55,778 nt of DNA from Parcubacteria group bacterium (GCA_041659505.1 JBAZYF010000005.1:1-55778); one strand, 5' to 3'. Positions 1-54,922 are shown, numbered from the stretch's first letter. Made by a program: numbers and translations. Notes: a model not told the origin generated them from the sequence alone.

Positions 1-243
1 AAAGATTCTACGAATGGTTCCTTTACCTGCACCTACGACAAAAACGGCACCTATGCTCCTAGTCTGAAAGTGACCGGACCAAGCTGTCTGGCAACTCCAG
101 TTGCTAAGATTAATGTCAATAATACTGCCAAAGATTGTCGCCCGGATGCTCCCGACTGTGCCTCCTATACTTGCAAGGATGTTTCTTGCAATGATGGTTG
201 TAATTTGCAGGTGGGGGAGAAGGATTGTGTGGGGAGGAGATAA
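1..243 (+). CDS. C-terminal fragment of a Cys-rich secreted protein (family A; 5' end lies outside the window)
   Basis: Frame 1 is open from nt 1 to TAA 241-243. PKD-like stretch TCTYDKNGTYAPSLKVTG. The last ~34 aa (DCASYTCKDVSCNDGCNLQVGEKDCVGRR) align with the C-terminus of 47652..49454. Confidence 0.75.
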   Translation, partial: KDSTNGSFTCTYDKNGTYAPSLKVTGPSCLATPVAKINVNNTAKDCRPDAPDCASYTCKDVSCNDGCNLQVGEKDCVGRR

Positions 244-270: not shown

Positions 271-687
271 ATGAATAAAAAACAGGTCGTAGTTCTCAGT
301 TTAGCGCTAGTGGTTCTATTTGGAAGCATCTATTTTGTTGCCAGAAAGATAAGCGATGGAAATCGGTCAATTAATCCGAAAAATATGACCAACGATAAGA
401 AAGAGATTCCTGTAAATATATTTAGTCAAGATGCGAATAACCAGCAGTCGAGTGCGAATGATGTTTCCGGCAATATAGAAAAAATTGCAGAAAAAACTCT
501 TACTATAAAAAATTCCAGGGAGTCAGTCAGTGTCAATATTAATGGCGCCACTCCAGTGATGATTTCTGTGAATGGTAATAATACAGTACTTGGTCAAATA
601 GCTGATATTAAAAAGGACGATGTGGTCAGAGTGACTTATGATGTAGCTACAAAAAATGTTAAAATGATTTTAGTGATACGGCCATAG
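271..687 (+). CDS. small membrane-anchored protein, family S copy 1 (unknown function)
   Basis: N-terminal TM helix VVVLSLALVVLFGSIYFV. C-terminal block GATPV..IADIKKDDVVRVTYD is shared with 14357..14902, 47191..47640 and 51005..51421. Confidence 0.7.
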   Translation: MNKKQVVVLSLALVVLFGSIYFVARKISDGNRSINPKNMTNDKKEIPVNIFSQDANNQQSSANDVSGNIEKIAEKTLTIKNSRESVSVNINGATPVMISVNGNNTVLGQIADIKKDDVVRVTYDVATKNVKMILVIRP

Positions 688-11080: not shown

Positions 11081-11168
11081 AATAACCTAAAATATTTTTT
11101 CAAAAAAAAGACAGATTTTAATATGTATGGTATTGTGTAATTATATAAAAATAAATTTAAAAAAGAAA

Positions 11169-14100
11169 ATGAAAAAAAAATTAAAATTCATATTTACGTC
11201 AAGCATCTTATCGATTTTATTGTTGCTTGCTTCCCTTTCTTGCGCCTCAGAAGTTCCATTTGATTCATCTTCAACTCAAGATTTAGCAACTCCAGTTGAA
11301 GCTCAAAAAGCTATCGCCATTGCGACAGTAAATATCTATAATACTAAGCTGGTTTCTCAAGATAACAGTAAACTGAAAATTTCTTTTCAACTTTCTAATC
11401 GCGAAAAAGCCCAGCCGGCAGTTAAGTATGCCGTTCAGCTGATTGGCAAAGAAGCGGAAAGCCAATATGTGGCGGATGAACAGATTTATCCGGAAGTCAT
11501 CTCTCTGGGCGAGCATGAGACTGCTTCCAAAGAAATTGAATATTTAGCTCCGAACTATCTTACCGGCACCTTTCGCGTTTTAGTGGTTTCCCGCAATGAA
11601 AATGGCCTACCCTTCTCCTTTGCTCCAGTGGGTGAAGTGGTTTTGCAAGGAGAAGCTAATTTTCTGGAAATACTACCCAACTCTTGTTTTCTGACGGTAG
11701 AAGGAGAAGTGAGCGCTAAAAAGTATACCATAAGGCAGGGCGTCGATATTAAAAGCGAGGAAACATTGCTGGCTACTTGTAACATCATTAATCATTTTCC
11801 AACAGCTATTTCTTTCACTCCAAGCATTGAAACTCATCGGCGTATCACAGTAGGAGAGTTAGTTCCGGATAACAATGAACCACAAAAGAAGTTATCTCTG
11901 GGAGCCGGAGAAAAAAAGAGTTTCTCCTTGAGTTTGCCCAAAGCGACGGCTCCTCAAGCCTATGATGCCGTCTTGAAATTAAAAGACAGCACTGGTACTA
12001 TTTCCAATCAAGTGGCTTTTCACTATGTGATCAGGGGAGCAAGTGCTACGATCCAAAATCTCATCTTGGACAAGAACTTCTATCAAAAAGGTGAAATAGT
12101 TAATACTACTCTTTTCTTCTCCGGATCAGCAGAGGGTTTTCCCGGTTCTCGTTTTGAAAAAGAAAAGAGAGAGGAATTCTTGATGAATATGGAGATTAAA
12201 GATGCAGCGGGTATTCCTTGTGTTACTTCTCAAGAGGCAAGTTTAGGTGAAGCGGATACTGATAAGACCTTTAGTCTTCCTGCCGTGGCTGATTGTACTG
12301 ATCCACTTGCTATGGTTATCCTCACAGACGCCAAAGGGAACCTTTTGGACAAAAGAGAATATCAATTCAAAAGTAACAATCAAACAACAACCGCAATTTC
12401 ATCAGAAACCAAACAAGGACAAAAAAGTGTGATGGCCTATGGTATTATTTTTATTGTCATTCTCACGATTATCGCCCTGGGAGCCATTTTTTTCAAGAAA
12501 AAGTTTTTGATTGTTTTTTTCTTAATCTTCTCTGGTATTTTTTGGAGAGGGGAGCAGGCGCGAGCAGATACCCTCGGTAACTTTGTCATAGGGCTAAACA
12601 AGTCTGTCTATGCTCCAGGAGAAACAATTATTGTCACTGCTACGGATAATCAGGCGCAGTGTTTAAATGCCGGGCATATATATAATGATTTGTTTGTTAC
12701 GATCAATGGAATTGAGTACGTAGTATTTCTAAATTCCAGCGGAGAGGGTATTAGTACAACAGTTTATGCTTCTGCTCCAGCAGCGCCAGGTAGCTACGTG
12801 GCTTCGTTTAGGTGGCCGACAATTTGGGGTACATACGATATTCCTTATATAGTAGTTGCACCTTGTGTACCAAGTTGCGCTTCTGCAGCTAGCTATTGCA
12901 CCTGGGAATCTATTTCCGATGGTTGTAGCGGAAGCTGCACTGGCACAAGGTTGCCTGATTGCTCCGGTCGTGGTGGTGTTTGTGTCGGCGTTAACTACCC
13001 CGTTGCTTGCGGAACTTGTACGGGTACAAAACCACCACTTTGTTCCGATGCTAATCTGCATTGCACTACAGAAACATACGCCAGTACAAACGGTTGTGGA
13101 AACTGCACCGGCACCTGGGATTGCACTTTGCCAACGTGTTCCGCCTCCTTTAGTCCAACTCAATTGACAACGGCCGGCACTTCCACTTTAACTTTGGATT
13201 CTTCTGCGACCGCTGATAATGTCTATGCTTTTTGCAACGGCCCAATTGCCGGTGGCTGGTGGAGTGCCACTGATTTCTCTTCTGGGGTTTGGTTTGCCGC
13301 GGGACAGATCGGAACAGAAACTTGTACTTTCCAAACCTACAATCGCTCATTAGCGGGCGGAGCCTGCAGTGCAACAGTCACAACCTACCCGGCGGCTACT
13401 GTCAACATCACCGCCACGAGCCCGATCCCCTTCGGCGGTAGTCCTACTTTTAACCTTTCCTCGACCAATGCATCGTCCTGCACGGTCAGCGTCGACGGAA
13501 CGATAATTTCCAGCGGCCCGGTCAATCGCTTATTCACATATGGCCCCTATCTCGTTGCCGGACTGCACAACGTTAGTGCCACTTGTCTTAATGCGATCGG
13601 TGCACCGGCTTCTGCTACAACATCTTTCATTGTTGAACCTGCCCCCGTCGCAACGATTACTGTAGTACCCAATCCCGTTGCTTGTGGCAGCAGTACTATC
13701 ATCTCTCTTGCATCGACCAATGCGACTAACTGCACAGTCTCACTGGATGGAGTCGCATTTTCCAGTGGTCCAACAACTTTAGTCACTTCCAGTGGTCCGT
13801 TTTTTGTCTCAATGACACATTCCGCATCAGCCCATTGTGTTAATGCTGCGGGTTATCCCTCTGATCCAGTTGTTCTTTTCTCCGTCGGCGCCTGTCACGC
13901 TTGCGGTACAGCTGCCACATTCTACCCTTACTCACTGGGCTTGTCTGATTGGCCAGGGGGAGTCACCTTCTGTGCTCCAGGTGTACCCAACCCGACTAAT
14001 CCCAGCTTTCCCGTGCTTACCCACGTTCCTCCTAATACAAAAACCACTTGGCTGTGTGAGAATCCATGGAATGCTGCGGATAATGAGTCTTGTACAGCCG

Positions 14101-14324
14101 AAAGGCAATGTCAACCAGATGGTACTACGCGGACTTGCGTGCCTGATGATTCGACCTACTGCACCAATCCAGCCACACTTAAATTGCGTTGTGGCAAAGA
14201 CATACCCTATCATTGCCTAGATAGTTGTAATGAGCCGGCGCCTGCTCTTTGCATATCAGACCCTTGCCCAACGATTCAATGCGCCCCATGTGATGCAGGT
14301 GAGTGGAAAGAGGTGAAACCTTGA
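11169..14324 (+). CDS. very large Cys-rich surface protein, family B copy 1 (signal peptide, Ig-like N-terminal half, internal TM hairpin, CxxC-rich modules, two Ig-like repeats)
   Basis: Signal peptide MKKKLKFIFTSSILSILLLLASLSCA (start moved to ATG 11169). Cys modules CSGSCTGT..CGTCTGTKPP..GCGNCTGT resemble 49502..50989. Tail CAPCDAGEWKEVKP. Confidence 0.7.
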   Translation: MKKKLKFIFTSSILSILLLLASLSCASEVPFDSSSTQDLATPVEAQKAIAIATVNIYNTKLVSQDNSKLKISFQLSNREKAQPAVKYAVQLIGKEAESQYVADEQIYPEVISLGEHETASKEIEYLAPNYLTGTFRVLVVSRNENGLPFSFAPVGEVVLQGEANFLEILPNSCFLTVEGEVSAKKYTIRQGVDIKSEETLLATCNIINHFPTAISFTPSIETHRRITVGELVPDNNEPQKKLSLGAGEKKSFSLSLPKATAPQAYDAVLKLKDSTGTISNQVAFHYVIRGASATIQNLILDKNFYQKGEIVNTTLFFSGSAEGFPGSRFEKEKREEFLMNMEIKDAAGIPCVTSQEASLGEADTDKTFSLPAVADCTDPLAMVILTDAKGNLLDKREYQFKSNNQTTTAISSETKQGQKSVMAYGIIFIVILTIIALGAIFFKKKFLIVFFLIFSGIFWRGEQARADTLGNFVIGLNKSVYAPGETIIVTATDNQAQCLNAGHIYNDLFVTINGIEYVVFLNSSGEGISTTVYASAPAAPGSYVASFRWPTIWGTYDIPYIVVAPCVPSCASAASYCTWESISDGCSGSCTGTRLPDCSGRGGVCVGVNYPVACGTCTGTKPPLCSDANLHCTTETYASTNGCGNCTGTWDCTLPTCSASFSPTQLTTAGTSTLTLDSSATADNVYAFCNGPIAGGWWSATDFSSGVWFAAGQIGTETCTFQTYNRSLAGGACSATVTTYPAATVNITATSPIPFGGSPTFNLSSTNASSCTVSVDGTIISSGPVNRLFTYGPYLVAGLHNVSATCLNAIGAPASATTSFIVEPAPVATITVVPNPVACGSSTIISLASTNATNCTVSLDGVAFSSGPTTLVTSSGPFFVSMTHSASAHCVNAAGYPSDPVVLFSVGACHACGTAATFYPYSLGLSDWPGGVTFCAPGVPNPTNPSFPVLTHVPPNTKTTWLCENPWNAADNESCTAERQCQPDGTTRTCVPDDSTYCTNPATLKLRCGKDIPYHCLDSCNEPAPALCISDPCPTIQCAPCDAGEWKEVKP

Positions 14325-14356: not shown

Positions 14357-14902
14357 ATGGATAGAAAAAAAATCATTATTCCCATCATTGCTCTCATAAT
14401 ACTTTTTGGCGGAGCCTTGTTTATCGCACAAAGTTTGAGTAATAAGAAGGCAGGAGTTACATCGCAGTCAGTCATTGATACTGGAAAGAATCAGTCAGTA
14501 TTAACTCCGGAGAATGTTCAAAATCCTACTACTCCGGTAAGTCCCGGAAATCAAGGGTCGCCATCAGCTTCAGGATTACCTATTGATCCAAATAACCCAG
14601 TAAATAAAGAGTTGAAGCCTGGTACAAAAGCAGATTTTGGTACAATTGATAGAGTGGATGATAAAAGCGTAGTGCTGAAATTAGCAGATAAATCAATTAC
14701 AGTTAACATTGCTTCTAATACGATCGTTACCAAAAATAGTAGTAATGGCAAGGTAACGACAGGAAGTCTTTCCGATCTAGCCGTTGGTGATCTGACTAAA
14801 GTGAGTTATCATGAAGACACTAAAAAAATTATTGAGATTGTGGTTATGAAGATTGACTTGCCGGATGACACCAAGAAACTGATTGATTTGCCTCAGCCAT
14901 AG
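14357..14902 (+). CDS. small membrane-anchored protein, family S copy 2
   Basis: TM helix IIIPIIALIILFGGALFIA, Pro/Asn-rich linker, C-terminal LSDLAVGDLTKVSYH block. Confidence 0.65.
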   Translation: MDRKKIIIPIIALIILFGGALFIAQSLSNKKAGVTSQSVIDTGKNQSVLTPENVQNPTTPVSPGNQGSPSASGLPIDPNNPVNKELKPGTKADFGTIDRVDDKSVVLKLADKSITVNIASNTIVTKNSSNGKVTTGSLSDLAVGDLTKVSYHEDTKKIIEIVVMKIDLPDDTKKLIDLPQP

Positions 14903-25931: not shown

Positions 25932-25950
25932 GGTGGTTTGTTTTAATAAA

Positions 25951-29275: not shown

Positions 29276-29299
29276 GTTACGTAACAAGGTAAGTAGCAA
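29276..29299. promoter_or_regulatory. conserved junction motif GTTACGTAAC-AAGGTAAGTAGCAA
   Basis: Third copy. Confidence 0.45.
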
Positions 29300-29322
29300 T
29301 GGGATTAATCATTTTTCATAAA

Positions 29323-30890: not shown

Positions 30891-32150
30891 ATGAATATCA
30901 AAATCAATCATATCGCAAAGATGGAAGGGCACACTGGCTTTATGGCAAGTGTGCTGGGTGGTGATGTTAAGTCGGCGAAATTGGAAGTGCAAGAAGGCAT
31001 CCGGCTGATCGAAGGCGTACTCATTGGGCGGGAATATCAAGACATGCCGCTCATTGCTCAGCGCATCTGTGGAATTTGTCCGGTGGTGCATAATCTCACT
31101 TCGGTGAAAGCTTTGGAAAACGCGATGGGCGTGACGGTGACGCCGGAGACGAAAAAACTGCGCGCGCTTTTGGAGGACGCCCAGTTTATCCATTCACACG
31201 CCTTGCATCTGTTCTTTTTGTCACTAGCGGATTTTTTGGATATGGACAATGACATCGAACTGATTAATAAATATCCGGAAGAAGCGAAAAAGGCCATACG
31301 GATCCGTGAGTTTGGAATGGAGATTGTGAAAGTGGTGGGCGGTCGCGTGGTGCATCCACTGACCAATGAAGTCGGCGGATTTAAAAAAGCGCCGGATCGC
31401 GAAGCGCTGAAAAAGCTGGTTAAAGATGCGGGTGAAATTTTGCAAATTGCCTTGGAGCTGGGAGATTTTTTTCGCGGAATCAAAATTCCGGATTTTTCGC
31501 GAGTGACAGAATATGTTTGTCTCGACAAAAAAGGCGAGTATGCGATTTATGACGGAGACGTGATTTCCAATCTGGGACTGCACATTCCGGTGGAAAAATT
31601 TGAAGCGAACTTTTTGGAATTGCAAAAACAAAACGAAGTGATCAAAAGAGTTGAGCATAATGGCCAGAGCTATATGGTCGGCGCGATTGCGCGGGTGAAT
31701 AATAACCGCTCCAGGCTTCGAGAAAATGCGGCCCAGTATTTGCGCAGTCTGGGATTGACTTTTCCGGATTATAATCCCTTTCATAATATTTTAGCGCAGA
31801 TGGTGGAAGTGATTCATTGCGTCGAGGATGCGAGGCGGATTATGCTGGAACTTTTGAATAGTGATTTGAATGAAGTTGTCACGAAAAATTATACCGTGAA
31901 AGAAGGTGTCGGCGTGGCTGCAGTGGAAGCGCCGCGTGGAACCCTCTACTATCACGTCGATGTCGATACGAAAGGGTATGTAAAAAACGTCAACATCATT
32001 ACACCGACTGCACAGTTTTTGTGCAATCTGGAAGACGATATCGCCGACTATATCCCGCAAATTTTGAAATTAAAAGACAAGGAAAAAGAGAAAAAATTGC
32101 GCGCATTTATCCGCGCTTATGATCCGTGCATATCTTGCGCGGTGCATTAA
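30891..32150 (+). CDS. [NiFe] hydrogenase large (catalytic) subunit, group 3 type
   Basis: N-terminal RICGICPVVH and C-terminal DPCISCAVH Ni-Fe ligand motifs. The ORF stops immediately after the His. Confidence 0.92.
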   Translation: MNIKINHIAKMEGHTGFMASVLGGDVKSAKLEVQEGIRLIEGVLIGREYQDMPLIAQRICGICPVVHNLTSVKALENAMGVTVTPETKKLRALLEDAQFIHSHALHLFFLSLADFLDMDNDIELINKYPEEAKKAIRIREFGMEIVKVVGGRVVHPLTNEVGGFKKAPDREALKKLVKDAGEILQIALELGDFFRGIKIPDFSRVTEYVCLDKKGEYAIYDGDVISNLGLHIPVEKFEANFLELQKQNEVIKRVEHNGQSYMVGAIARVNNNRSRLRENAAQYLRSLGLTFPDYNPFHNILAQMVEVIHCVEDARRIMLELLNSDLNEVVTKNYTVKEGVGVAAVEAPRGTLYYHVDVDTKGYVKNVNIITPTAQFLCNLEDDIADYIPQILKLKDKEKEKKLRAFIRAYDPCISCAVH

Positions 32151-39097: not shown

Positions 39098-39171
39098 GGG
39101 CGATTAGCTCAGTTGGTTAGAGCGCGTCACTGATAATGACGAGGTCGGAGATTCGAGTTCTCCATCGCCCA
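39098..39171 (+). tRNA. tRNA-Ile (anticodon GAT)
   Basis: Acceptor stem GGGCGAT/ATCGCCC, anticodon loop CTGATAA, T-arm GGTTCGAGTTC-type. No encoded CCA. Confidence 0.9.
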
Positions 39172-39199
39172 CGTGAAAGTAAGATTTAGTTAAAAATAA

Positions 39200-39272
39200 G
39201 GGCCCTTAGCTCATTTGGTAGAGCACCTGCTTTGCAAGCAGGGGGTGATCGGTTCGAGCCCGATAGGGTCCA
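39200..39272 (+). tRNA. tRNA-Ala (anticodon TGC)
   Basis: Acceptor stem GGGCCCT/AGGGTCC with the G3:U70 alanine identity pair, anticodon loop TTTGCAA, T-loop GGTTCGAGCC. Confidence 0.9.
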
Positions 39273-39303
39273 CTAAGTATTCTCCGTTTAGCCAAGGATG
39301 GAA

Positions 39304-43485: not shown

Positions 43486-43647
43486 ATATCCTCCTCTCCC
43501 CTCGGGAGAGGATGTCCGAAGGACAGGTGAGGGCAAGGGTAATAATAAAAAGTAAGAATGTTCTAAATAGGAAAGTGATAATTTAATCAAACGCCCTTTC
43601 CCTCATCCGGCCTTCGGCCACCTTCTCCCTAAGGGCGAAGGGGATAT
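43486..43647. repeat. family B MITE-like element, copy 1
   Basis: Ends ATATCCTCCTCTCCCCTCGGGAGAGGATGTCCGAAGGACAGGTGAGGG / CCCTCATCCGGCCTTCGGCCACCTTCTCCCTAAGGGCGAAGGGGATAT. Second copy at 54769..54922. Confidence 0.75.
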
Positions 43648-43838
43648 GGGTAGAAACAAAAAACAAAAAACACCCCGCAGAGCGTCTTATGATTTCTTGG
43701 AAATTGGAAATTTGGATTTTGTCATTTAGTTTTAGCTATCCTCAGCGCCCGGACGAATCCGTGGGGTTTGCAAGATAGGTTATGTAACTATTATAGCATA
43801 TCTGTGCGCCGTGGTATACTGGGGGTATGATTGAACCG

Positions 43839-44007
43839 TGTCATTCCCGCGAAGGCGGGAATCCAGGCACCTCAGGCTTGAAATATGGAGAAATCGGATT
43901 GTTGAAATTCAAGATTCACTGAAGAAGATCGTTTGTCAGACTTGCAACTCGATTTTCAAAAGTTTATAGATAGTGGAACCTGGATTCCCGCCTCCGCGGG
44001 AATGACA
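43839..44007. repeat. family A MITE-like element, copy 2
   Basis: TGTCATTCCCGCGAAGGCGGGAATCCAGGCACCTCAGG ... GGAACCTGGATTCCCGCCTCCGCGGGAATGACA. Confidence 0.8.
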
Positions 44008-44048
44008 AGGAAAGAGTTTTGAGTTTAAAGATATGAAATACGTCGTAT

Positions 44049-46085: not shown

Positions 46086-46102
46086 TTTTTACTGATTTTT
46101 TG

Positions 46103-46260
46103 TGTCATCCCTGCGGAGGCGGGGATCCAGGCACCTCAGGTTTTAAGAAAAAGAAAAACAGAATTTACTGGTCAGTAATAAAAAGTCAGAGGATTTGTAA
46201 TTCGATTTTTTGTAATTCATAACTAGTGGAACCTGGATTCCCGCCTTCGCGGGAATGACA
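46103..46260. repeat. family A MITE-like element, copy 3
   Basis: TGTCATCCCTGCGGAGGCGGGGATCCAGGCACCTCAGG ... GGAACCTGGATTCCCGCCTTCGCGGGAATGACA. It ends 8 nt before the ATG at 46269. Confidence 0.8.
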
Positions 46261-46268
46261 CAGCTTAG

Positions 46269-46653: not shown

Positions 46654-47028
46654 TTATTCAGTGCAGTTACTTTCACACTCGGCATTTTTCATCGAATCAT
46701 TCGGGAAAGTCTTTGCGCATTTTTCTACGCAAGACTTGCAGGTGTCAAATTTAGCGGTCTTTTGCAATTTACACTCGCCATTGATAGTTTGGCAACTGGC
46801 ATATTGGCGGCAGTTGTCGCCAAAGGCATACATCGAATCGCAAGCCGCGCTGGTGTTTGGACCGCAAGTGATATCAAGTCCGTGGCAATTTTCCATTCCG
46901 CATTTTCCGGAAACTTGCGGAGGATTGACTGGTTGGTTTGTATCTGGATTATTTGGTCGGCTTTGTCCGCAGCCGGTCAAAAACAGCAGGGCCATAGACA
47001 GTGTTCCCAGTGTGATGATTTTTTTCAT
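46654..47028 (-). CDS. small Cys-rich lipoprotein
   Basis: Lipobox LFLTGC after a basic/hydrophobic signal peptide. The mature part has many Cys (CGMENCHG..CG..C..C..C..C..C). Confidence 0.65.
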   Translation of the reverse strand: MKKIITLGTLSMALLFLTGCGQSRPNNPDTNQPVNPPQVSGKCGMENCHGLDITCGPNTSAACDSMYAFGDNCRQYASCQTINGECKLQKTAKFDTCKSCVEKCAKTFPNDSMKNAECESNCTE

Positions 47029-47190: not shown

Positions 47191-47640
47191 ATGGACAAAA
47201 AGAAATTAGCTCTCGTAGCCTCATTGATTTTACTAGTTGGCGCTTTAGCTCTCGTACTTTTAGTGAAAACCAAGAATCAAAATGAACAGGCAGCGTTAAG
47301 TGGAGAAAAACGACAATTAAGTAATCCGGTAACAGCATTACCGATTGAAAATCTGACTAAATTAGAAAAAAGCTCTAGCGCATCTGGCCAAGCAATCGCT
47401 GGAAAAGTGAAATTGATCCAGGAGGATACGCTGGCAGTGGAGGATAGGGATGGGACATTGAATGGCTTTGGCATAAGCGGTTCAACTCCGGTTTTTTTTG
47501 TCGAGGAAGGGAAGGCGGATGAACTGAAGCAGATGGCCGATCTGCGTATCGGTGACTCGGTTGAGATTTCATATGACGAAGCGACAATGGAGGTCGGCGC
47601 TATCAACGTCTTAGTTGGAAAAGGGGATAATAATAAATAA
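47191..47640 (+). CDS. small membrane-anchored protein, family S copy 3
   Basis: TM helix LALVASLILLVGALALVLLV; C-terminal GSTPV..MADLRIGDSVEISYD block. Confidence 0.65.
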   Translation: MDKKKLALVASLILLVGALALVLLVKTKNQNEQAALSGEKRQLSNPVTALPIENLTKLEKSSSASGQAIAGKVKLIQEDTLAVEDRDGTLNGFGISGSTPVFFVEEGKADELKQMADLRIGDSVEISYDEATMEVGAINVLVGKGDNNK

Positions 47641-47651
47641 ATCTAAATAAA

Positions 47652-49454
47652 ATGAAAAAAAAATATTCAAACTTGTATTTAGTTCTCTTCCTGCTCCTTT
47701 CCCTGTCTCTTTTTGGAATTTCCGATTCACAGGCGGCCGAGTTTCTTTGTTCACCAAGCAACACGACTGGCTATATTTCTCTTCAATATGGACCTTCTGG
47801 CTCGTCCGTACCCTTTACTCCGCCGACAACAAGTCATTTTGCTATTGGAGGTGGGCTTGCAAAGAATGGTCCTTGCTATAAGGATGGAAAATTCAGAGTC
47901 TTTGTCTTACCAGGAACAAAGGTTCTTAATATTGACGGAAACAACTCCATGCAAAATACGCGGCTTTATTTCATTTCTCGGTTCAATAAATTTCCTGGCA
48001 AAAAAATAGCAGATCCTTTTTCTGATGCTAATATTTTAAAACTTCCTTATGGGGGAACAAAACTGAAAACATTGAAGGATGGAGATTATCATTCTACTAA
48101 TGCCAATGGAATATTTAGCATTATAACTGATGGTTATTCGTATCCTATTGCGCCCAATGAGGCAGGCTGGGTATACGTGGACGCTGACTTTGGATCAGGA
48201 GCTAGTATCAGTTACGCTAACGCTACGGGAGATATCGACTTGGATGCTTTTAATGATTGGTATAAGCATTCCGGTTCTAATTCGGATGGCTCTATTAATT
48301 GGGAAAAGGATGTTGAGAGTATGACAACCTATGCCCCGATCAATAATCATAGGACGGATTGCAATAAAGAGACTTGTGTTGGAAACTCTTGCTGGGATGG
48401 CGCGAAATTCGTTGTTGGCACCAAGACCACTGGTTGTGCTACTGGGACAGCAACAGCCGATCCAAATCCTGGCAAAATAGGAGCAAGGATTAGTTCAGTA
48501 ATAACTTGGAAATCGGAGAATGCTTCAGTGACAACATATGCGATAGGTGAGTTTGAAAATAGGATGTCCCCTGCTCGCGGAAGCACCTTAAGTGGAAATA
48601 GTGGTAGCTTTAACTACACAGAGCGTCGTAATACGGATTATCGCGTGTTCACTTTTTTTCCGCGAAACTCTTCAAATGATATGCCGGGTACGCCATATTT
48701 CGTCAAGGTTGACTTTAAAAAAACTGGGGGCTCTCCTAATTGTGCTGCCGATACCTGCGTAGGTAATAATTGTTATGATGGATCAAAGGATATCCCTGGC
48801 ACAAAAACCCAAGGCTGTGCCACCGGCACAGTCAGTTTCGCACCAACGGCGGTTACGCCTATTTCCGAGAATCCTCCCAAAGAATTGACTTACTTAACCT
48901 GGTCTTCCATTAATACTTCCAAGCTAGAAGTGGCCTGCACCGGACCAACCACCATCGCCAGAGCGGAGATTCAGAAAAGTTCCACTGAATGGATGACTGA
49001 TGCTGCCAAATCAGGACTCTATACCAAGCCCGCCGGCGCTCCTGATGGTTACCCTGGATGGTTCCATGTTGGCACCAGTGGCACATTCGCCTGTACCTTC
49101 TATCCTACTAACCAAGCTGATGGTAAACCAGGCACTCCTTTCAAAGCTTCGGTTGAAGTCAAAAAACCTGGGGGTAGTGATTTTTCTTGTACAGGAACTG
49201 TTCCTACCAACGCCACTAAGTGTACTGACGATGATACTGAGCTAACAGCGACTCTGCCTTGGCAATCCGTAGGAACTTCTGCTTCTGCTTGCACTGCCAC
49301 TAGAAAATGCGAATACTATGGTGCTTCTTCTCATAGTGGTGATATTTGCATTCCCGATGATCCAGACTGTGCAAATCATACTTGTAAGGACGTTTCTTGC
49401 AACAATGGTTGCAATATGCTAGAAGGGGTGAAGGATTGTATTGGAAGGAGGTAA
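47652..49454 (+). CDS. large secreted Cys-containing protein, family A copy 2
   Basis: Signal peptide ..LFGISDSQA. Internal repeat C..[ED]TCVGN.C[WY]DG.K...GTKT.GCATGT occurs twice. Tail CKDVSCNNGCNMLEGVKDCIGRR matches 1..243. Confidence 0.7.
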   Translation: MKKKYSNLYLVLFLLLSLSLFGISDSQAAEFLCSPSNTTGYISLQYGPSGSSVPFTPPTTSHFAIGGGLAKNGPCYKDGKFRVFVLPGTKVLNIDGNNSMQNTRLYFISRFNKFPGKKIADPFSDANILKLPYGGTKLKTLKDGDYHSTNANGIFSIITDGYSYPIAPNEAGWVYVDADFGSGASISYANATGDIDLDAFNDWYKHSGSNSDGSINWEKDVESMTTYAPINNHRTDCNKETCVGNSCWDGAKFVVGTKTTGCATGTATADPNPGKIGARISSVITWKSENASVTTYAIGEFENRMSPARGSTLSGNSGSFNYTERRNTDYRVFTFFPRNSSNDMPGTPYFVKVDFKKTGGSPNCAADTCVGNNCYDGSKDIPGTKTQGCATGTVSFAPTAVTPISENPPKELTYLTWSSINTSKLEVACTGPTTIARAEIQKSSTEWMTDAAKSGLYTKPAGAPDGYPGWFHVGTSGTFACTFYPTNQADGKPGTPFKASVEVKKPGGSDFSCTGTVPTNATKCTDDDTELTATLPWQSVGTSASACTATRKCEYYGASSHSGDICIPDDPDCANHTCKDVSCNNGCNMLEGVKDCIGRR

Positions 49455-49501
49455 AAAGTAAAAACAAACAAAATTTAATAAATAAAAATTAAAATAAAAA
49501 A

Positions 49502-50989
49502 ATGAGGGTTATAAAAAATTTGAATTGGCTACTAATCCTGGGCGTGTTACTTTTTTTTAGTAACTCTTTAGCGCTTGGAGATACTGGGGATCAGCAAGGG
49601 TGTGACTTTTGGTATCCTTGGTCATGTAATCCGTCCTCATATTGCGTGGGGGAAACTGCTCCGTATGAGTGCAACCACAATCCTCCATGTTGCGATGCTG
49701 AAACACTTAGTGGTTTGAATTGCGCTGGTACGAAACAACCGGATTGTTCCAATTCTGGTAGTTATTGCATCGGGAAGAGTTATCCTAGTCCTAATGGTTG
49801 TGGCACATGCAACGGCACAAAGGGACCGGATTTTGATCAATCGGCTTGCTCCGCCTATGGCTTGAACTGCGGTACGTATGACGCCGGTTGCGGTTATAGC
49901 GTTAATTGTGGAACTTGTACATACCCCAATGTTTGCACTGATGGCAGGTGCTCTTGTGTTCCTGATTGTTCCGGTGCTGGTAATGTTTGTGCGGGAGTCC
50001 ATTATCCCGATCCTACCGGTTGTAGGGCCTGTATCGGCACAAAAGGACCCGATTTTGATCAATCTGCCTGTTCCAAATTTGGCTTGACTTGTGGCATATA
50101 CGACGCTGGTTGTGAAAATACTGTTAATTGTGGAACATGTACACCTCCGGCAACTTGCGTGAATGGTCATTGTGAGGGCAATGGAGGTAACGGTTGTATT
50201 CCCGCTGGTTGTCCAGCCGCTTGTGCAACTACTTGTTTAGGTGAATATTGTGGGTTTGATTGTTCTACACGATGTTATGGAACGATGATTTGTGATACTG
50301 GAGAAATTGGCGTCAAATGCGGTGGATCATGCACGAAAAACAGCGAATGCTTCACCGGACTCTTTTGTAATCCATATACGCACAAATGCGATGATGGTGA
50401 TGCTTGTATTCCCCCTGATTCCTGTTCCCCGAACAACCCTAACTGTGGCGCCAATGTTTGTATCGGAGCGCCAGACTGTTGGAATGGCTGTGAGTTTGAA
50501 CATGGCACAAAAAATTGCTCAACTTGCGGGCTTACAGTTACTCTGACTGCCAATCCAACTTCCGGTCCCGTGCCTTTTACCACTACCTTGACAGCTACTC
50601 CCAGTATCCTTCCAGTTAGTAATTATACCTATGAAAAAAGCTGCGGAAGAACAGGGACGATAACAGACGGAAACAATACAACTACAAACAAGTTTAAGTG
50701 CACATACGACACAGTACCATGTCGCAGCAGAGAAAGCGCTAGCGTGATAGTGAGAAAAAAAAGCGATCCTGACTGTACGGATTCTGATTCTGCTACTATT
50801 GCATTGGAAGCTTGTGTTCCTTCGCATGATTGTGTTTCAAATTGTAATGGCAATACTGATTGTGGCTATAAGACTGATCGATGTGTTCCGACAGGTTGTT
50901 CTAATAGTTGTGATGGCGTCACCTGCACTACAGAGACCAATTGTGGATTATGCGGTTCCGGAGAGTGGAAAGAGGTCAGTCCTAATTAA
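49502..50989 (+). CDS. secreted Cys-rich protein, family B copy 2
   Basis: Signal peptide; tandem ~75 aa modules (..GC..C.GTKGPDFDQSACS..GL.CG.YDAGC...VNCGTCT.P..C); PKD-like segment LTVTLTANPTSGPVPF; tail CGLCGSGEWKEVSPN. Confidence 0.7.
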   Translation: MRVIKNLNWLLILGVLLFFSNSLALGDTGDQQGCDFWYPWSCNPSSYCVGETAPYECNHNPPCCDAETLSGLNCAGTKQPDCSNSGSYCIGKSYPSPNGCGTCNGTKGPDFDQSACSAYGLNCGTYDAGCGYSVNCGTCTYPNVCTDGRCSCVPDCSGAGNVCAGVHYPDPTGCRACIGTKGPDFDQSACSKFGLTCGIYDAGCENTVNCGTCTPPATCVNGHCEGNGGNGCIPAGCPAACATTCLGEYCGFDCSTRCYGTMICDTGEIGVKCGGSCTKNSECFTGLFCNPYTHKCDDGDACIPPDSCSPNNPNCGANVCIGAPDCWNGCEFEHGTKNCSTCGLTVTLTANPTSGPVPFTTTLTATPSILPVSNYTYEKSCGRTGTITDGNNTTTNKFKCTYDTVPCRSRESASVIVRKKSDPDCTDSDSATIALEACVPSHDCVSNCNGNTDCGYKTDRCVPTGCSNSCDGVTCTTETNCGLCGSGEWKEVSPN

Positions 50990-51004
50990 AAAATAAAAAA
51001 CACT

Positions 51005-51421
51005 ATGCAAAAAAGCAAACAAATCCTCATCCTCATTTTTGCACTTATTGTCCTCATCAGCGGGATCTATTCTGTCGCTAGAAAAATCAGCGAAAAAAAC
51101 AAGTCAGCCGTTTCCATGACAGAGAGGACGTCAAAGACAGAACAAGATGAACAACGTAAAAAAATACTCGACCGGCAAGTGCCAGACGCGAACAATCCTG
51201 ACCTAGCAGGCACCATTGTCAATATCAAAGAAAAAACCATGCTTATCAAAGGAGTGAATGAAACAGTTTTAGTCAACATCTCTGGCGCTACTCCTGTCAC
51301 GCTGATAGATAAGAACAAAAAAGAAACCCTTGCGGGTATGGCCGACCTGGAACGGGGCGATGCAGTCAAAATTACCTATGACAAGGATAAAAACGTTACA
51401 ATGATTTATCTTGAGCAATAG
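51005..51421 (+). CDS. small membrane-anchored protein, family S copy 4
   Basis: Closest paralog of 271..687 (..SGIYSVARKISEKN.., GATPV, MADLERGDAVKITYD). Confidence 0.7.
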   Translation: MQKSKQILILIFALIVLISGIYSVARKISEKNKSAVSMTERTSKTEQDEQRKKILDRQVPDANNPDLAGTIVNIKEKTMLIKGVNETVLVNISGATPVTLIDKNKKETLAGMADLERGDAVKITYDKDKNVTMIYLEQ

Positions 51422-51458
51422 GGCTTGTGGTTGGTTGCGCGGAAATGATAGCGATAAA

Positions 51459-51486
51459 AAAACACCAGGGATGGTGTTTTTTTTGT
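51459..51486 (+). terminator. intrinsic terminator
   Basis: AAAACACCA-ggga-TGGTGTTTT followed by a T-run. Confidence 0.75.
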
Positions 51487-51535: not shown

Positions 51536-51732
51536 ACAACTAAAAAGACGTTTGAGGAACTATCAATTCCGAAGTCGAAGAAAGAACTTTCGCCGAGTTC
51601 GCGCGAAAAATTAGACTCTTCCGGGTAAGCCCGTCAACGCTGTAATTAAGTCTGCCACAGGTGGAAAATTAAGGTGGTACCACGATTTATTCGTCCTTAT
51701 GCATTTTGTTTGTATGGGGATTTTTATTTTTT
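51536..51732 (+). promoter_or_regulatory. T-box riboswitch leader (Ile-specific candidate)
   Basis: T-box sequence AAATTAAGGTGGTACCACG at 51666..51684, followed by a terminator hairpin CCTTATGCA/TGTATGGGG and T-run (51695..51732). ATC followed by A at 51562..51565 is the candidate specifier. An IleRS gene lies downstream. Confidence 0.6.
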
Positions 51733-51740: not shown

Positions 51741-51897
51741 TGTCATCCTGAGCGAAGTCCGTAATCGGACGAAGTCGAAGGATCTGCCTAAGGTTATCGC
51801 GGGGCTTTTTAATTTATTGTAGAGCTAACGATTACACAAAGTAGATCCTTCGACTCCATAAATTTTCCGGAGAAAATTTATTCCGCTCAGGATGACA
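51741..51897. repeat. family C MITE-like element, copy 2
   Basis: TGTCATCCTGAGCGAAGTCCGTAATCGGACGAAGTCGAAGGATCT ... AGATCCTTCGAC ... CGCTCAGGATGACA. Confidence 0.8.
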
Positions 51898-54765
51898 ATC
51901 ATGAGTATGTTTAAAAAAGTCGATTCAAGGAAAAAGTATTCCGAGATGGAAAAAGAAATTATTGAGTTTTGGAAAGCGGATGGTACTTTTCAAAAATCGG
52001 TGGAACAGCGGAGTAAGGATAAATATTACAGTTTCTATGATGGACCGCCATTTATCACGGGCGTGCCCCACTATGGCACGCTACTTTCTTCGATCGTGAA
52101 AGACGCCGTTCCTCGTTATTGGACGATGAAGGGTTTCCGCGTGGAGAGGCGTTGGGGTTGGGATTGTCATGGGCTGCCGGCGGAGAATATGGTGGAGAAA
52201 AAGTTAGGCCTCAAAAGTAAGAAAGACATTGAAAAAATTGGGGTGGCAAAATTCAATGAAGCCTGCCTGCGAGAAACTTCGCAGATCGCTTCCGAGTGGG
52301 AAGATGTAATTGATCGCATCGGTCGCTGGGTGGAATTCAAAGGCGCCTACAAAACGATGGATAAAGGGTATATGGAATCGGTCTGGTGGGCGTTTTCAGA
52401 ACTTTTCAAAAAAGGCCTCATCTATGAAGATGTGCGCGTATCGCTGTATTGCCCGCGTTGTTCCACGCCACTTTCAAACTTTGAAATCGCGATGGATAAT
52501 TCTTATGAGATGGATAGTGATCCTTCGGTGTATGTGAAGATTAAGGTTAATGGCGAGGAAAATACATATTTCTTGGTGTGGACAACGACTCCTTGGACAC
52601 TTTTGGCCAATGTCGCGCTAGCGGTTGGCGGAGGAATAGATTATGTCAAAGTCAAAACCGCTGAGGGAAATTATATCTTAGCAAAAGAACGAGTGGCGAA
52701 TGTTTTCAAAGAGGGCGAAGTTGAAATTGTTGAAGAGCTTAAGGGTGTGGATTTAGTTGGCAGGGAATACGAACCAATTTTTCCCCACGAAATTGAAAAT
52801 GGCTATCGCGTGATTGCAGGAGATTTCGTGACGACAGAAGACGGATCGGGTATCGTGCATATTGCGCCGGCGTTTGGTGAGGATGACTTTAATGTGAGAA
52901 AACCGAATAATCTGCCGATCATCATGAACGTGGATGAGGAAGGGCAATTCACGGAAGGGGAGTGGCAAGGGCAGAAAGTCTGGGAGGCGAACAACGATAT
53001 TGTGAAATGGCTGAAGGAGAACGGATTTCTTTTCAAACGCGAACAAATCACGCATAGCTATCCGCACTGTCATCGCTGTCACACTAAGTTGATCTACAAA
53101 GCCCAGCCGGCCTGGTATGTGAATGTGGACAAAATCCGTCAGAATCTGCTCGACGAAAATGAAAAAATCAATTGGTATCCGGAATTTTTAAAGCATGGCC
53201 GTTTTCAAAACGGGATCGAAAGCGCCCCGGATTGGAACATCTCACGCGACCGCTATTTCGGCACAGCTATTCCAGTTTGGAAATGCGAAGCGCAGGATTG
53301 TGGAGAAATTAAAGTTGTTGGATCATATGGCGAGCTGAAAGAATTATCAGGAGTAGAGTTGCCAGATTATCACCGGCCGGGCGTCGATGAGATTACTTTC
53401 AAATGCGAGAAATGCGGCGGGGAAATGCGACGGATTCCGCAAGTATTTGATTCTTGGATCGAGTCCGGTTCGATGCCGTTCGCGCAATTTCATTATCCCT
53501 TTGAAAACAAAGAAGTCTTTGAAAAAAGTTTTCCAACTGATTTTATCTCGGAATATATTGCCCAAACTAGAGCATGGTTTTATGTGCTCCACGTCGTTTC
53601 GGTGGGAATTTTCGGGAAAATCAGTTTCAAAAACGTCGTGACGACCGGAACGATTGCCGGATCGGACGGCAAGAAAATGTCGAAATCTCTGGGCAACTAT
53701 CCCGATTCCAATATTATCCTGGAAAAACACAGCGCCGATGCTTTGCGCTTTTATCTCTTGTCTTCGCCGCTGCTTAATGCGCAAAATATTAGTTTTTCAG
53801 AAAAAGCCATTCAGGACATCCAAAGAAAAGTGCTCTCTACTCTTTGGAATAGCTATTCCTTTTTCACGCTCTACGCCGGCGTAGATAAATGGGAGCCAAA
53901 AAATAAACTGGGCACGGTGTCAGACTCCAAAAATCTTTTGGACCGCTGGATCGTTTCTGAACTTCACAAATTGATTGGCGAAGTTGACACGAATATGCAA
54001 GGCTACGACTTGGTCAAAGCCACCCGTCCGTTTGAACTATTCGTGGACAATCTTTCCAATTGGTACATCAGGCGCTCTCGCAAGCGTTTTTGGAAAAGTG
54101 AAAATGATGGCGACAAAAACAGCGCCTATGAAACTTTGCACTATGTGCTCGTGATGCTGGCCAAAACAATGGCACCGTTCACACCGTTCATCGCAGAGGA
54201 GATGTATAAAAATCTAACCGGTGACGAATCGGTGCATCTGGTGGAATTTCCAACCAGTGATGAGAAATTGATTGATGAAAAATTAAATGCCGAGATGAAA
54301 AAAGTGCGTGATGTAATTTCCGAAGGCTTGCAACAACGGGCACTCAATCGAATTAAAGTCCGCCAACCATTGGCTGGGGCGACGATCAAGCACAAAATCG
54401 AAAACGCAGAATTGGTAGAAATTATGCAAGAGGAGTTGAATGTGAAAAGCGTTACAGTCTTGGAAACGCAGGAGGAAAATATTAAACTCGATCTCGAAAT
54501 CACGCCCGAGCTAAAACTCGAAGGCACAGCGCGCGAGCTGGTGCGGGCGATCCAAGAGATGCGAAAAGAGGCAGGCTATGAAGTAGATAATCACATCAAA
54601 ATTGGCTATGTCGGGGCAGAGGAAGTTTTCACAAAATTCGGCGACCTCATCGCCAAAGAAACTTTAGCGAATGCCATTTCCGCTGGTGAGTTGGCCGAGG
54701 CAGACCTCGAAAAAGAAGTTTTGATTGATGAGGTGAAGTATGGTATTTTTATTATGAAGGATTAA
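51892..54765 (+). CDS. ileS: isoleucine--tRNA ligase (type 2 style)
   Basis: FYDGPPFITGVPHYGT (HIGH-type), KMSKSLGN, CP1 editing-domain-sized insert, Zn-type CPRC/CHRCH/CEKCGG motifs. The first ATG (51892) lies inside the repeat, so the real start may be 51901 or 51907. Confidence 0.9.
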   Translation: MTIMSMFKKVDSRKKYSEMEKEIIEFWKADGTFQKSVEQRSKDKYYSFYDGPPFITGVPHYGTLLSSIVKDAVPRYWTMKGFRVERRWGWDCHGLPAENMVEKKLGLKSKKDIEKIGVAKFNEACLRETSQIASEWEDVIDRIGRWVEFKGAYKTMDKGYMESVWWAFSELFKKGLIYEDVRVSLYCPRCSTPLSNFEIAMDNSYEMDSDPSVYVKIKVNGEENTYFLVWTTTPWTLLANVALAVGGGIDYVKVKTAEGNYILAKERVANVFKEGEVEIVEELKGVDLVGREYEPIFPHEIENGYRVIAGDFVTTEDGSGIVHIAPAFGEDDFNVRKPNNLPIIMNVDEEGQFTEGEWQGQKVWEANNDIVKWLKENGFLFKREQITHSYPHCHRCHTKLIYKAQPAWYVNVDKIRQNLLDENEKINWYPEFLKHGRFQNGIESAPDWNISRDRYFGTAIPVWKCEAQDCGEIKVVGSYGELKELSGVELPDYHRPGVDEITFKCEKCGGEMRRIPQVFDSWIESGSMPFAQFHYPFENKEVFEKSFPTDFISEYIAQTRAWFYVLHVVSVGIFGKISFKNVVTTGTIAGSDGKKMSKSLGNYPDSNIILEKHSADALRFYLLSSPLLNAQNISFSEKAIQDIQRKVLSTLWNSYSFFTLYAGVDKWEPKNKLGTVSDSKNLLDRWIVSELHKLIGEVDTNMQGYDLVKATRPFELFVDNLSNWYIRRSRKRFWKSENDGDKNSAYETLHYVLVMLAKTMAPFTPFIAEEMYKNLTGDESVHLVEFPTSDEKLIDEKLNAEMKKVRDVISEGLQQRALNRIKVRQPLAGATIKHKIENAELVEIMQEELNVKSVTVLETQEENIKLDLEITPELKLEGTARELVRAIQEMRKEAGYEVDNHIKIGYVGAEEVFTKFGDLIAKETLANAISAGELAEADLEKEVLIDEVKYGIFIMKD

Positions 54766-54768
54766 AAA

Positions 54769-54922
54769 AATCCTCCTCTCCCCTCGGGAGAGGATGCCCG
54801 TAGGGCAGGTGAGGGTTTTTACCTATGCAGATAAGACTAGCAGTTGAATCGAGGCACTATGGTTATGGGCAGCACCCTCATCCGTCCTTCGGCTACCTTC
54901 TCCCGGAGGGCGAAGGGGATAT
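54769..54922. repeat. family B MITE-like element, copy 2
   Basis: TCCTCCTCTCCCCTCGGGAGAGGATGCCCGTAGGGCAGGTGAGGG ... CCCTCATCCGTCCTTCGGCTACCTTCTCCCGGAGGGCGAAGGGGATAT. Confidence 0.75.

Follow-up and report, generated by a model that had tools for sequence, protein, structure and literature searches.

Small membrane-anchored barrel proteins encoded beside variable cysteine-rich secreted proteins: candidate surface-protein loci in a lineage of Moranbacteria

The DNA analysed here, a 55,778-nt window (the whole stretch) with an order of 47 genes, encodes four small membrane-anchored proteins, termed S, each adjoining a gene for a signal peptide-bearing, cysteine-rich protein of type A or B. The gene anatomy of these loci, the fold of S, its kinship with the Pfam family DUF5666, the operon-like spacing of the genes and an adjacency that is both enriched and conserved in related Moranbacteria contigs (numbered loci with the prefix L) are established by this analysis. 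The explanation that we favour, though only tentatively, is that these are surface-protein loci specific to one uncultured lineage of Moranbacteria (CPR/Patescibacteria), in which A and B would be interchangeable surface cargo and S the stable partner, close to the membrane, that docks or assembles them.

The eight open reading frames of the preliminary description were all recovered on the + strand at the positions it gave, with the exception of one start. B1 had been placed at 11169..14324; the reading frame itself opens further upstream (Table 1), although 11169 is its second ATG and the likely start. The intergenic gaps, described as about 10-50 nt, measure 27, 32, 11, 47 and 15 nt. The interior of the S3-A2-B2-S4 block holds no + strand terminator-like site except for a weak 5-bp match in B2 (49935-49951), and a strong 12-bp terminator-like site lies directly 3' of S4. 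With a terminator-like site only after S4, the block fits a single predicted transcription unit. Downstream of this hairpin, ileS has a sub-threshold T-box leader.

Table 1. Coordinates and layout of the S, A and B genes and associated features in the window
Feature	Position	Strand	Product and layout	Cys content	Context
A1 (fragment)	1..243	+	C-terminal 80 aa of an A-family Cys-rich protein (from translation), truncated at the window edge; ends in the 6-Cys A tail CRPDAPDCASYTCKDVSCNDGCNLQVGEKDCVGRR	10%	
S1	271..687	+	138 aa; TM anchor, linker and OB-like barrel		27 nt 3' of A1; argS next
B1	11127..14324	+	1065 aa counted from 11127; long B-family protein: signal peptide, Cys-poor domain of ~400 aa, TM hairpin (aa ~438-472), Cys-rich ectodomain, tail CAPCDAGEWKEVKP	4.2%	hoxF-like hydrogenase gene on one side, hoxU-like gene on the other
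S2	14357..14902	+	181 aa; S paralog with long linker and C-terminal extension		32 nt 3' of B1
S3	47191..47640	+	149 aa; S paralog		Opens the S3-A2-B2-S4 block; 11 nt 5' of A2
A2	47652..49454	+	600 aa; signal peptide, beta-sandwich head, two internal Cys-knot + Ig-like units, C-terminal 6-Cys A tail	3.7%	
B2	49502..50989	+	495 aa; signal peptide, tandem Cys repeat modules, tail CGLCGSGEWKEVSPN	13.1%	DNA repeat 49780-49921 / 50002-50143
S4	51005..51421	+	138 aa; S paralog used for structure modelling		15 nt 3' of B2
Intrinsic-terminator-like hairpin + T run	51456..51483	+			Closes the S3-A2-B2-S4 block

As had been proposed, the four S proteins are paralogs: in an alignment of the window copies, identity ranges over 25-43% and 12 columns are invariant, and the block G[AS]TPV ... 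[AS]D[LI]xxGDxVx[VI][ST]Y[DH] is common to all four. None of them contains cysteine. Their anatomy consists of an N-terminal TM helix, a disordered and variable linker of ~35-60 aa and a Cys-free, seven-strand OB-like barrel, and the AF2 model of S4 places the helix at residues 3-31, the disorder at 32-65 and the barrel, with pLDDT >95, at 66-137. Mean column identity is 0.37 in the TM region, 0.35 in the barrel and 0.15 in the linker, so that the TM segment is conserved to the same degree as the barrel. Foldseek searches returned generic OB folds only, the best at E 3e-3 and none at E <= 1e-3.

The closest named relative of the barrel is DUF5666 (PF18914), a small beta-barrel repeat of secreted or cell-wall proteins that receives only passing mention in the papers that name it. 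The best match among the window copies is that of S2 (19.3 bits, E 0.0014, against a gathering score of 27 bits), and S1, S3 and S4 gave no DUF5666 match in the Pfam search; 11 of 44 S-like proteins show weak matches, all under the cut-off. An HMM built from the S barrel retrieves 414 representative proteins at E <= 1e-3, many of them multi-repeat, and four of these multi-repeat matches (P0020, P0021, P0025 and P0043) score E 5e-17 to 4e-48 for PF18914. Judged by these profile comparisons, S belongs to the DUF5666 superfamily as a divergent relative with a single copy of the barrel. The two have in common strand-turn motifs and, going by the AF2 model of S, a small all-beta OB-like barrel of ~60-70 residues, whereas the DUF5666 relatives are multi-repeat and in S a disordered linker joins the single copy to an N-terminal TM helix, itself conserved. 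The earlier view that the architecture matches no named system can therefore be kept only in part: S has this kinship and Cys-rich CPR proteins have already been described, but DUF5666 has no assigned function. The topology of S is not settled from sequence because the charge is about +2 on both flanks of the TM helix; SLH, CARDB or peptidase C1 domains accompany the repeats in the multi-repeat relatives and mark an extracellular setting, and by analogy with these relatives S would be a bitopic protein with its barrel facing outward.

An alternative function for S would be that of an export or folding helper, YajC-like or LytA-like, which aids Sec translocation, oxidative folding or release of the large disulfide-rich substrates encoded next to it and does not tether them. 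YajC is similar to S in its size, in having a small beta-barrel after a single N-terminal TM helix and in a GD-x-V hairpin motif, and one S-like protein (P0057) is named 'preprotein translocase subunit YajC' in one database. Pfam YajC matches 6 of the 44 S-like proteins below threshold (best E 1.1e-4, 22.5 bits against a 28.2-bit cut-off), and hhalign aligned 37 columns of the S profile with YajC at 59% probability, though with the strands in another register and against a YajC profile that comprised, apart from one further sequence, Enterobacterales sequences only. NCBIfam searches gave S4 weak matches to LytA (E 0.0017) and YqiH (E 0.016), with scores far under the cut-offs (18.5 against 110 bits). 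A helper role would also be in keeping with the conserved TM helix, as expected for contact with a membrane machine, with a thioredoxin/GILT-like membrane protein 3' of S in L007 and L027, and with tgt lying two genes from S, in L009 and L012 only. However, the four window S proteins have no Pfam YajC (PF02699) match at E <= 1 and none in NCBIfam, the S profile did not find the E. coli YajC chains in the PDB at E <= 1, and the window copies lack the juxtamembrane motif RPQQKR. P0057 is flanked by an A tail and a GDSL-lipase A gene, away from secDF, and no secDF occurs near S in any of the loci examined. S is present in multiple paralogs, and four or more per genome would be unusual for a translocon subunit. 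The YajC barrel is cytoplasmic, in contrast to the extracellular relatives of S, and the kinship with the extracellular DUF5666 repeat proteins is far stronger. We consider the wider helper role improbable; S is probably not YajC itself either, given sub-threshold matches only, none of them in the window copies, and the stronger DUF5666 kinship.

Both protein types have the appearance of modular surface proteins that are exported and rich in presumed disulfides. Hydrophobic signal-like segments are found at the N-termini of A2, B1 and B2, and Cys makes up 3.7-13.1% of these three intact proteins. Within the two families distinguished previously, A1 and A2 have tails with 71% identity across 35 aa, and B1 and B2 share Cys repeat modules and their final 15 aa. 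The families are not fully separate, however, as the A-tail module (C..TC.G..C.DG....GTK..C) also occurs once within B2 as well as twice within A2. In 17 of 17 A homologs the 6-Cys module sits at the extreme C-terminus while the heads differ (jelly-roll, BNR, GDSL lipase), and such a constant C-terminal module on varied heads is typical of an anchoring or sorting module. The AF2 model of A2 is confident at residues 80-220, 360-505 and 570-600. Long B proteins follow the order signal peptide, Cys-poor domain, TM hairpin, Cys-rich domain and GxW[KQ]EVxP tail, and those at L007 and L021 have the same architecture as B1.

Since the signal peptide is the sole TM segment of the A proteins, with none found beyond it, they need some means of retention. 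The C-termini of A and B contain no LPXTG and no TM segment with a basic tail, ending 1-8 residues past the last Cys module, and sortase/LPXTG wall anchoring was rejected on the absence of this C-terminal sorting signal. Several observations count against a docking role for S: long B proteins need no tether because they have a TM hairpin of their own, and no polar or catalytic residues are conserved in the S barrel in a way that would indicate a ligand. The unsettled topology of S, the generic Foldseek matches and the S and A/B genes that occur apart from each other count against it too.

Large Cys-rich extracellular proteins have been described in Peribacteria, another CPR group, and proposed to act in attachment (Anantharaman et al. 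2016, PMC4736985). Like A and B, these have signal peptides, high Cys content, modular structure, strain-level variability and clustering in the genome (PMC4736985). For A and B, the variability takes the form of presence or absence of the A gene, of length variants of an A-family lipase protein (1109 vs 1332 aa) and of contig ends within A/B genes (L001, L004 and L034). The Peribacteria proteins have a mean length of 1655 aa, against 200-1300 aa for A/B, and belong to another phylum-level lineage; A and B are recognised by particular Cys modules at their C-termini, and the available text of that paper reports no S-like partner (PMC4736985).

The association of S with A and B is strong in the window. 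When the order of the 47 genes was shuffled in 200,000 trials, all four S genes stood beside one of the four A/B genes in 85 (P ~4e-4). As the preliminary description implied, the arrangement is non-random, and it recurs in other Moranbacteria contigs, as A-S (L009, L012, L017), A-B-S (L007), B-B-S and B-S-S (L021, L027), an alternating A-S-A-S-A array (L038) and an A tail-S-lipase order in which the lipase itself carries an A tail (L040). At L004 the S2 ortholog P0010 lies 3' of a B tail, and S is upstream of A in S3-A2, L001 and L039. Some 18 of 23 S genes with resolved flanks adjoin an A/B-type gene, which amounts to enrichment across genomes and not to the fixed pairing originally described; the latter holds inside the window alone. 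Five S genes lack an A/B neighbour (L016, L019, L020, L025, L026), six A/B clusters lack S (L030, L031, L032, L034, L035, L036), among them four tandem A genes at L032, and S is present in only about 4 of 10 A-anchored clusters.

These exceptions bear on the main rival explanation, in which S and A/B are co-located without contact. S would then be a multi-copy general envelope protein whose promoter-proximal flank is permissive or recombination-prone for variable surface genes, and the adjacency would reflect shared expression or genome dynamics. Besides the A/B clusters lacking S, it is supported by orthologous S loci with and without an A gene, which differ by a clean 2.3 kb segment bounded ~20 nt 5' of the A start and ~9 nt 5' of the S start codon and preceded by the same promoter-like elements, TTGTCA / TGTGnTAGAAT. 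S therefore does not depend on an adjacent A. S is kept without A/B at the conserved positions ruvX-S-argS, comF-S-CLIPPER protein-tgt and S-pilM, and the S-argS loci of L020 and L026, syntenic with S1-argS, have no A gene. The S phylogeny tracks synteny rather than partner type, close relatives being paired with A, with B or with nothing. L004 shares 98% identity with a 248-nt block of the window that runs from the B1 tail across the spacer into S2, of which it takes in the first 96 nt; identity in the remainder is 70%, and this step points to recombination with a breakpoint inside S. Co-location without contact nevertheless leaves unexplained why the inserts nearly always belong to the A/B tail families rather than being any secreted protein, why alternating A-S-A-S-A arrays exist, and why B and S travel together into unrelated surroundings (B1-S2 lies inside a hydrogenase operon in the window; the orthologous B tail-S pair in L004 adjoins rplY). 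We regard it as a serious contender, albeit a somewhat unlikely one.

The same gene orders could be read as toxin-immunity pairs, with A and B as polymorphic secreted toxins or effectors and S as the membrane-anchored immunity protein encoded directly downstream. A large secreted protein followed 15-32 nt later by a small one, variable heads that include hydrolases (GDSL lipase, BNR), the occurrence of 'orphan' S genes and the probable episymbiotic habit of these organisms would all suit such a system. Polymorphic toxins carry their variable toxin domain at the C-terminus, and the immunity protein varies along with that domain; the A proteins show the opposite, as it is the C-terminus that is conserved throughout the 17 homologs and the heads that vary. 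Closely related S proteins with different partners or none, S clades that follow synteny, S genes upstream of A and S conserved at syntenic core-genome positions argue further against immunity, which we consider very improbable.

Under the docking explanation that we prefer, A and B would be Sec-exported, disulfide-rich mosaics with swappable heads (beta-sandwich, BNR propeller, GDSL lipase and others) carried on Ig-like/Cys-knot stalks and ending in the 6-Cys A tail or the GxW[KQ]EVxP B tail. S would be the stable element, with A/B genes gained and lost right beside it and, in the window, probably co-transcribed with it. Held near the membrane on its flexible linker, the S barrel may bind the conserved C-terminal module of A/B and thereby dock, retain or assemble at the cell surface proteins that otherwise have no anchor. 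Small membrane-tethered partners of secreted or membrane proteins, encoded together with them, are familiar from the B. subtilis LytA/YqiH lipoproteins and from the NfeD/YuaF OB-fold proteins. Like these partners, S is small, beta-rich and anchored in the membrane, and its gene would share an operon with that of a larger envelope protein; it differs from them in having no lipobox and partners unrelated to autolysins or SPFH proteins. Functional analogies may also be drawn with cohesin-dockerin, SLH-SCWP and sortase-LPXTG systems, which likewise combine a conserved C-terminal module, diverse heads and a nearby gene for a cell-bound partner. The analogy supposes a hypothetical S-A/B interaction and extends to no relation in sequence or fold, S being an OB-like barrel and not a cohesin. 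A more specific proposal, rather unlikely in our estimation, is that S barrels are membrane receptors for the lineage-specific C-terminal Cys modules of A/B, giving Moranbacteria a sortase-independent, cohesin-dockerin-like display in which lipase, BNR propeller and beta-sandwich heads are swapped beside stable S anchors, possibly by recombination that makes use of the conserved S 5' end.

CPR/Patescibacteria are thought to live attached to other cells, and how they present attachment and feeding proteins at their surface is little understood; to our knowledge, most have no recognised anchoring system for such proteins. The recurrent S-A/B pairing offers a concrete candidate for a surface-display system, with secreted partners that share a C-terminal Cys module and bear heads including a lipase and a sialidase-like propeller, and these may serve in attachment or feeding on a host. 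If the partnership is a true one, it would provide the first functional context for DUF5666, a widespread domain. Even if the adjacency reflects insertion hot spots only, it would still mark the sites at which strain-variable surface genes turn over. The location of S beside variable Cys-rich secreted proteins suggests a previously undescribed way in which Moranbacteria may hold proteins at their surface.

The window comes from the chromosome of a CPR bacterium whose closest public relatives are all annotated as Candidatus Moranbacteria/Moraniibacteriota, and it carries housekeeping genes (argS, tpiA, fba, gap, dnaE, rnhB, ileS and a murD-like gene) together with a split [NiFe]-hydrogenase cluster. 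According to the preliminary description, four small membrane-anchored proteins (S1 to S4) are encoded beside Cys-rich proteins of an A type (A1, a fragment at the window edge, and A2) or a B type (B1, long, and B2, short). ORF coordinates, alignment and shuffling bear this out for the window. All four S genes lie 11-47 nt from a same-strand Cys-rich ORF, and when co-localisation was checked by shuffling the 47-gene order of the window, four-of-four adjacency arose in 85 of 200,000 trials. The four S proteins align over their full length (25-43% identity, 12 invariant columns) and contain no cysteine. On the + strand within S3-A2-B2-S4, a single weak 5-bp terminator-like match was found, and a 12-bp stem with a T run lies 3' of S4. 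Just upstream of S3, a divergently oriented lipoprotein-like ORF (124 aa, lipobox LFLTGC, 13 Cys) may be a further member of this set of Cys-rich surface proteins. The region upstream of ileS, with the GGTGGTACCACG box, matches a T-box leader below threshold (42.9 bits vs gathering score 93, E 3e-8).

Coordinates of features in the window and, where an L number is given, in contigs of related genomes
Feature	Position	Remark
A1 fragment	1-243	followed by S1
S1	271-687	same strand as A1
Beta-propeller gene	2468-4846	792 aa; PF09826, E 1e-155
[NiFe]-hydrogenase cluster	9174-32150	interrupted twice by surface-protein genes
hoxE-like	9174-9626	
Intergenic repeats (two families)	9637-9819, 43832-44014, 46096-46267; also 43488-43647, 54770-54922	
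hoxF-like	9824-11080	followed by B1-S2
B1	11127/11169-14324	followed by S2
TM hairpin of B1	12420-12560	aa ~435-475
Block shared with L004	14205-14452	L004 1-248
S2	14357-14902	same strand as B1
hoxU-like	15010-16059	after B1-S2
hypD, 23S-rRNA-IVP protein, hypE, TrmB regulator (-), hypF C-terminal part (-)		in this order after hoxU-like
Hydrogenase small subunit	22367-23269	followed by M10-like peptidase and four unknown paralogs
Four tandem paralogs	24238-25887, 25933-27528, 27577-29259, 29299-30846	515-560 aa
Hydrogenase large subunit	30891-32150	last of cluster
tRNA-Ile(GAT), tRNA-Ala(TGC)	39098-39273	adjacent
Lipoprotein-like ORF	46654-47028 (-)	
S3	47191-47640	same strand as A2, B2, S4
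A2	47652-49454	one block, in order S3, A2, B2, S4
B2	49502-50989	same block
Terminator-like match	49935-49951	in B2
S4	51005-51421	same strand as S3, A2, B2
Stem and T run	51456-51483	
T-box-like leader	51542-51701	
ileS	51892-54765	
Repeat copies in relatives	L004 9367-9544; L026 2579-2743	
Microsatellite	L009 about 8865-8945; also L011 1-60	
Membrane protein 3' of S	L007 10559-11629; L027 3278-4336	352-356 aa
Type IV pilus operon	L016 8406-16048; L017 8258-16220; L031 7363-	pilM, N, O, B, response regulator, T, C, pilin

The pairing had also been called fixed, and here the claim holds only in part. Loci in related genomes were collected from S, unbiased towards A/B, and a separate survey was anchored on A. 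An A/B-type gene adjoins about 18 of the 23 S genes with resolved flanks, so that S does not usually stand without such a neighbour. The arrangements are A-B-S with a thioredoxin/GILT-like membrane protein downstream (L007/L018), A-S (L009, L012, L017/L022), B-B-S (L021), B-S-S (L027), a B tail and S at a contig start (L004), and, in L001, S near a contig end that cuts off the next ORF, which has a signal peptide and cysteines. S is found without A/B in S-pilM (L016), ruvX-S-argS (L020, L026), comF-S-CLIPPER protein-tgt (L025) and L019. From the side of A, S is present in about 4 of 10 clusters (L009, L012, L037 and L038, the last ordered A-S-A-S-A with gaps of 19-124 nt); the clusters lacking it are A-pilM (L031), four tandem A genes (L032), A followed by B (L034), and L030, L035 and L036. 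The association is thus strong, but not obligatory. In several relatives (L016, L017, L031) a complete type IV pilus operon follows directly on an S or A gene.

An AlphaFold2 model of S4, built on a 44-sequence alignment, comprises a helix (residues 3-31), a low-confidence linker (32-65) and a seven-strand barrel (66-137) with pLDDT above 95. Foldseek comparison with the PDB returned OB-type barrels only (for example HypC, eIF5A, LysRS anticodon domains and proteasomal ATPase N-domains), with no match at E <= 1e-3 and no functional lead; a PDB sequence search with the S profile gave no relatives, and neither S, A nor B had a match above cut-off in Pfam or NCBIfam. A profile of the barrel only, searched against 1.84 billion representative proteins, retrieved 414 at E <= 1e-3. 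The architecture of S (120-180 aa, MDRKKxLILxLALxVLxGGIF anchor) recurs in about 50 clusters, and many other matches are proteins with 3-11 tandem copies that hit Pfam DUF5666 (E 5e-17 to 4e-48). In some of these, additional SLH, CARDB or peptidase C1 domains locate the DUF5666-type domain outside the cell. The window copies themselves score below the DUF5666 cut-off. Because the barrel profile retrieves proteins scoring so strongly for DUF5666, S is a divergent, single-copy, membrane-tethered DUF5666-type barrel; a literature search gave no described function for DUF5666. Mean column identity across the family is 0.37 in the anchor helix, 0.35 in the barrel and 0.15 in the linker, so the anchor is conserved like the barrel, whereas the linker is not.

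Conservation of the TM helix, a thioredoxin-like gene nearby and the YajC and LytA echoes lend weak support to S being an export or folding helper; overall we consider such a role improbable. One S-like protein, P0057, is named YajC in one source. Pfam YajC matches are sub-threshold, occur in 6 of 44 relatives and in none of the window copies, hhalign of the S profile against YajC gave 59% probability over 37 columns, and the P0057 gene has an A tail on one side and a GDSL-lipase A gene on the other, with secDF not nearby. We therefore do not accept S as a YajC, which is retained as a minor rival only. Directly 3' of S in L007 and L027 is a membrane protein with a Cys-rich cytoplasmic N-terminus and a weakly matched thioredoxin/GILT-like C-domain (E 0.006), which makes it a candidate for forming disulfides in the Cys-rich proteins encoded beside it, as an oxidoreductase.

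The 16 homologs of A2 are all on Moranbacteria-type contigs, and 17/17 A proteins end, 1-8 residues from the stop codon, in C-x-[PVK]-D-[DN]-P-x-C-x3-[TVI]-C-K-D-[VL]-x-C-x-D-G-C-x5-G-x-K-x-C. Their N-terminal parts vary and include BNR/Asp-box with PKD (P0160), GDSL lipase (L038, L039, L040) and, in the structure model of A2, a beta-sandwich. As the tail module also occurs internally, twice in A2 and once in B2, A and B are mosaics of shared parts rather than clean families. The long B proteins (B1 and those of L007 and L021) have a common plan of signal peptide, ~400 Cys-poor residues, two-helix TM hairpin, Cys-rich ectodomain and a C-G-x-C-x2-G-x-W-[KQ]-E-[VI]-x-P tail; B2 is a short version with 13% Cys and an internal tandem repeat. 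An AxA-like site follows the second hairpin helix (ARA/D in B1, AEA/L in L007), which makes internal cleavage by signal peptidase possible; a long B ORF may thus yield two products, an N-domain anchored by its C-terminus and a Cys-rich C-domain that is set free. PDB sequence searches with A2 and B1 found no relatives. The A2 model (mean pLDDT 65) gave Foldseek matches to modular ectodomains (such as EphA4 and laminin LE) that were too weak and low in TM to be used for function. Large, Cys-rich, strain-variable extracellular proteins in another CPR lineage, with attachment as proposed role, are outlined in PMC4736985; A and B resemble them in being Cys-rich, probably extracellular and variable.

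When 21 S proteins were placed in a neighbour-joining tree, clades followed synteny, not partner type: for example, S from L009 and L012 (A-S), L023 (S-TPR-Cys-rich) and L025 (no partner) are close orthologs, and that of L016 (no partner) is sister to that of L017 (A-S). A toxin-immunity system, with A/B as toxins and S as immunity protein, is very improbable and was rejected on domain logic, since the C-terminus is the conserved part of A and S does not co-vary with its partner. L025 and L009 match in both flanks of a 2.3 kb segment that bears the A gene; the segment runs from ~20 nt ahead of the start codon of A to ~9 nt ahead of that of S, and promoter-like elements upstream of it are shared by both loci. 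Window S1-argS is syntenic with ruvX-S-argS of L020 and L026 (~76% DNA identity), where the A gene is absent. Together with the tree, these data make S the stable element, beside which accessory A/B genes turn over. The 2.3 kb indel and the synteny also support a rival reading in which S and A/B share an insertion-permissive, co-expressed site without contact; we rate it only slightly less likely than the docking role proposed below.

B1-S2 lies within the hydrogenase cluster, and its ortholog pair in L004 adjoins rplY. The 248 nt shared with L004 (B1 tail, spacer and the first 96 nt, or 32 codons, of S2) are 98% identical, beside ~70% for the rest of S2, a mosaic that points to a recent recombination event with its breakpoint in the linker region of S. 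The B-S pair, at least, can also move as a unit. No DNA repeats link the S paralogs. A phage or mobile-element origin was rejected, as IMG/VR viral contigs contain no S or A-tail relatives and neither integrase nor transposase genes adjoin the cassettes in the window; likewise DGR-type hypervariation, with no reverse transcriptase in the window. Duplicated promoter-like -10 elements flanking A in L012 may be local promoter consensus and were not counted as an insertion scar. In L009, an (AAGAAAC) x ~13 heptanucleotide microsatellite separates the A stop codon from the promoter-like region of S. The beta-propeller gene is absent at otherwise syntenic L020, where a GT2 gene is directly 3' of argS, and is a further indel of a probable surface protein.

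Between the hydrogenase subunit genes, the four tandem paralogs have signal-peptide-like N-termini (…KLKFKLFFLVVIFYCFFGLAKNSHA), DNA segments 62-86% identical and no Pfam match. One intergenic repeat family (~175 nt, terminal inverted repeats GTGTCATCC.CGCGAAGGCGGGGATCCAGG … CCTGGATTCCCGCC.TCGCGGGAATGACA) looks MITE-like, and the second consists of GC-rich hairpin elements of ~150 nt; there was no Rfam match. The tRNA pair is rRNA-spacer-like, yet no rRNA genes were detected within the window.

The literature searched holds no description of the recurrent S-A/B cassette, of the A and B tail modules as defined, or of a single-copy membrane-tethered DUF5666 form. We tentatively favour S as a docking, retention or assembly partner of A/B, in which the barrel, held near the membrane on its flexible linker, would bind the conserved C-terminal Cys module of varied secreted proteins. 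Docking would explain the conserved tail on variable heads, A proteins without an anchor of their own, and an A/B-tail protein as the nearly constant neighbour of S. Counter to this reading, S is found without A/B and A/B without S, long B proteins possess their own TM hairpin, and the charge flanking the S helix does not settle topology. Both components belong to known kinds, DUF5666-type barrels and CPR Cys-rich surface proteins, and the family, small and of one lineage only, has a putative function.
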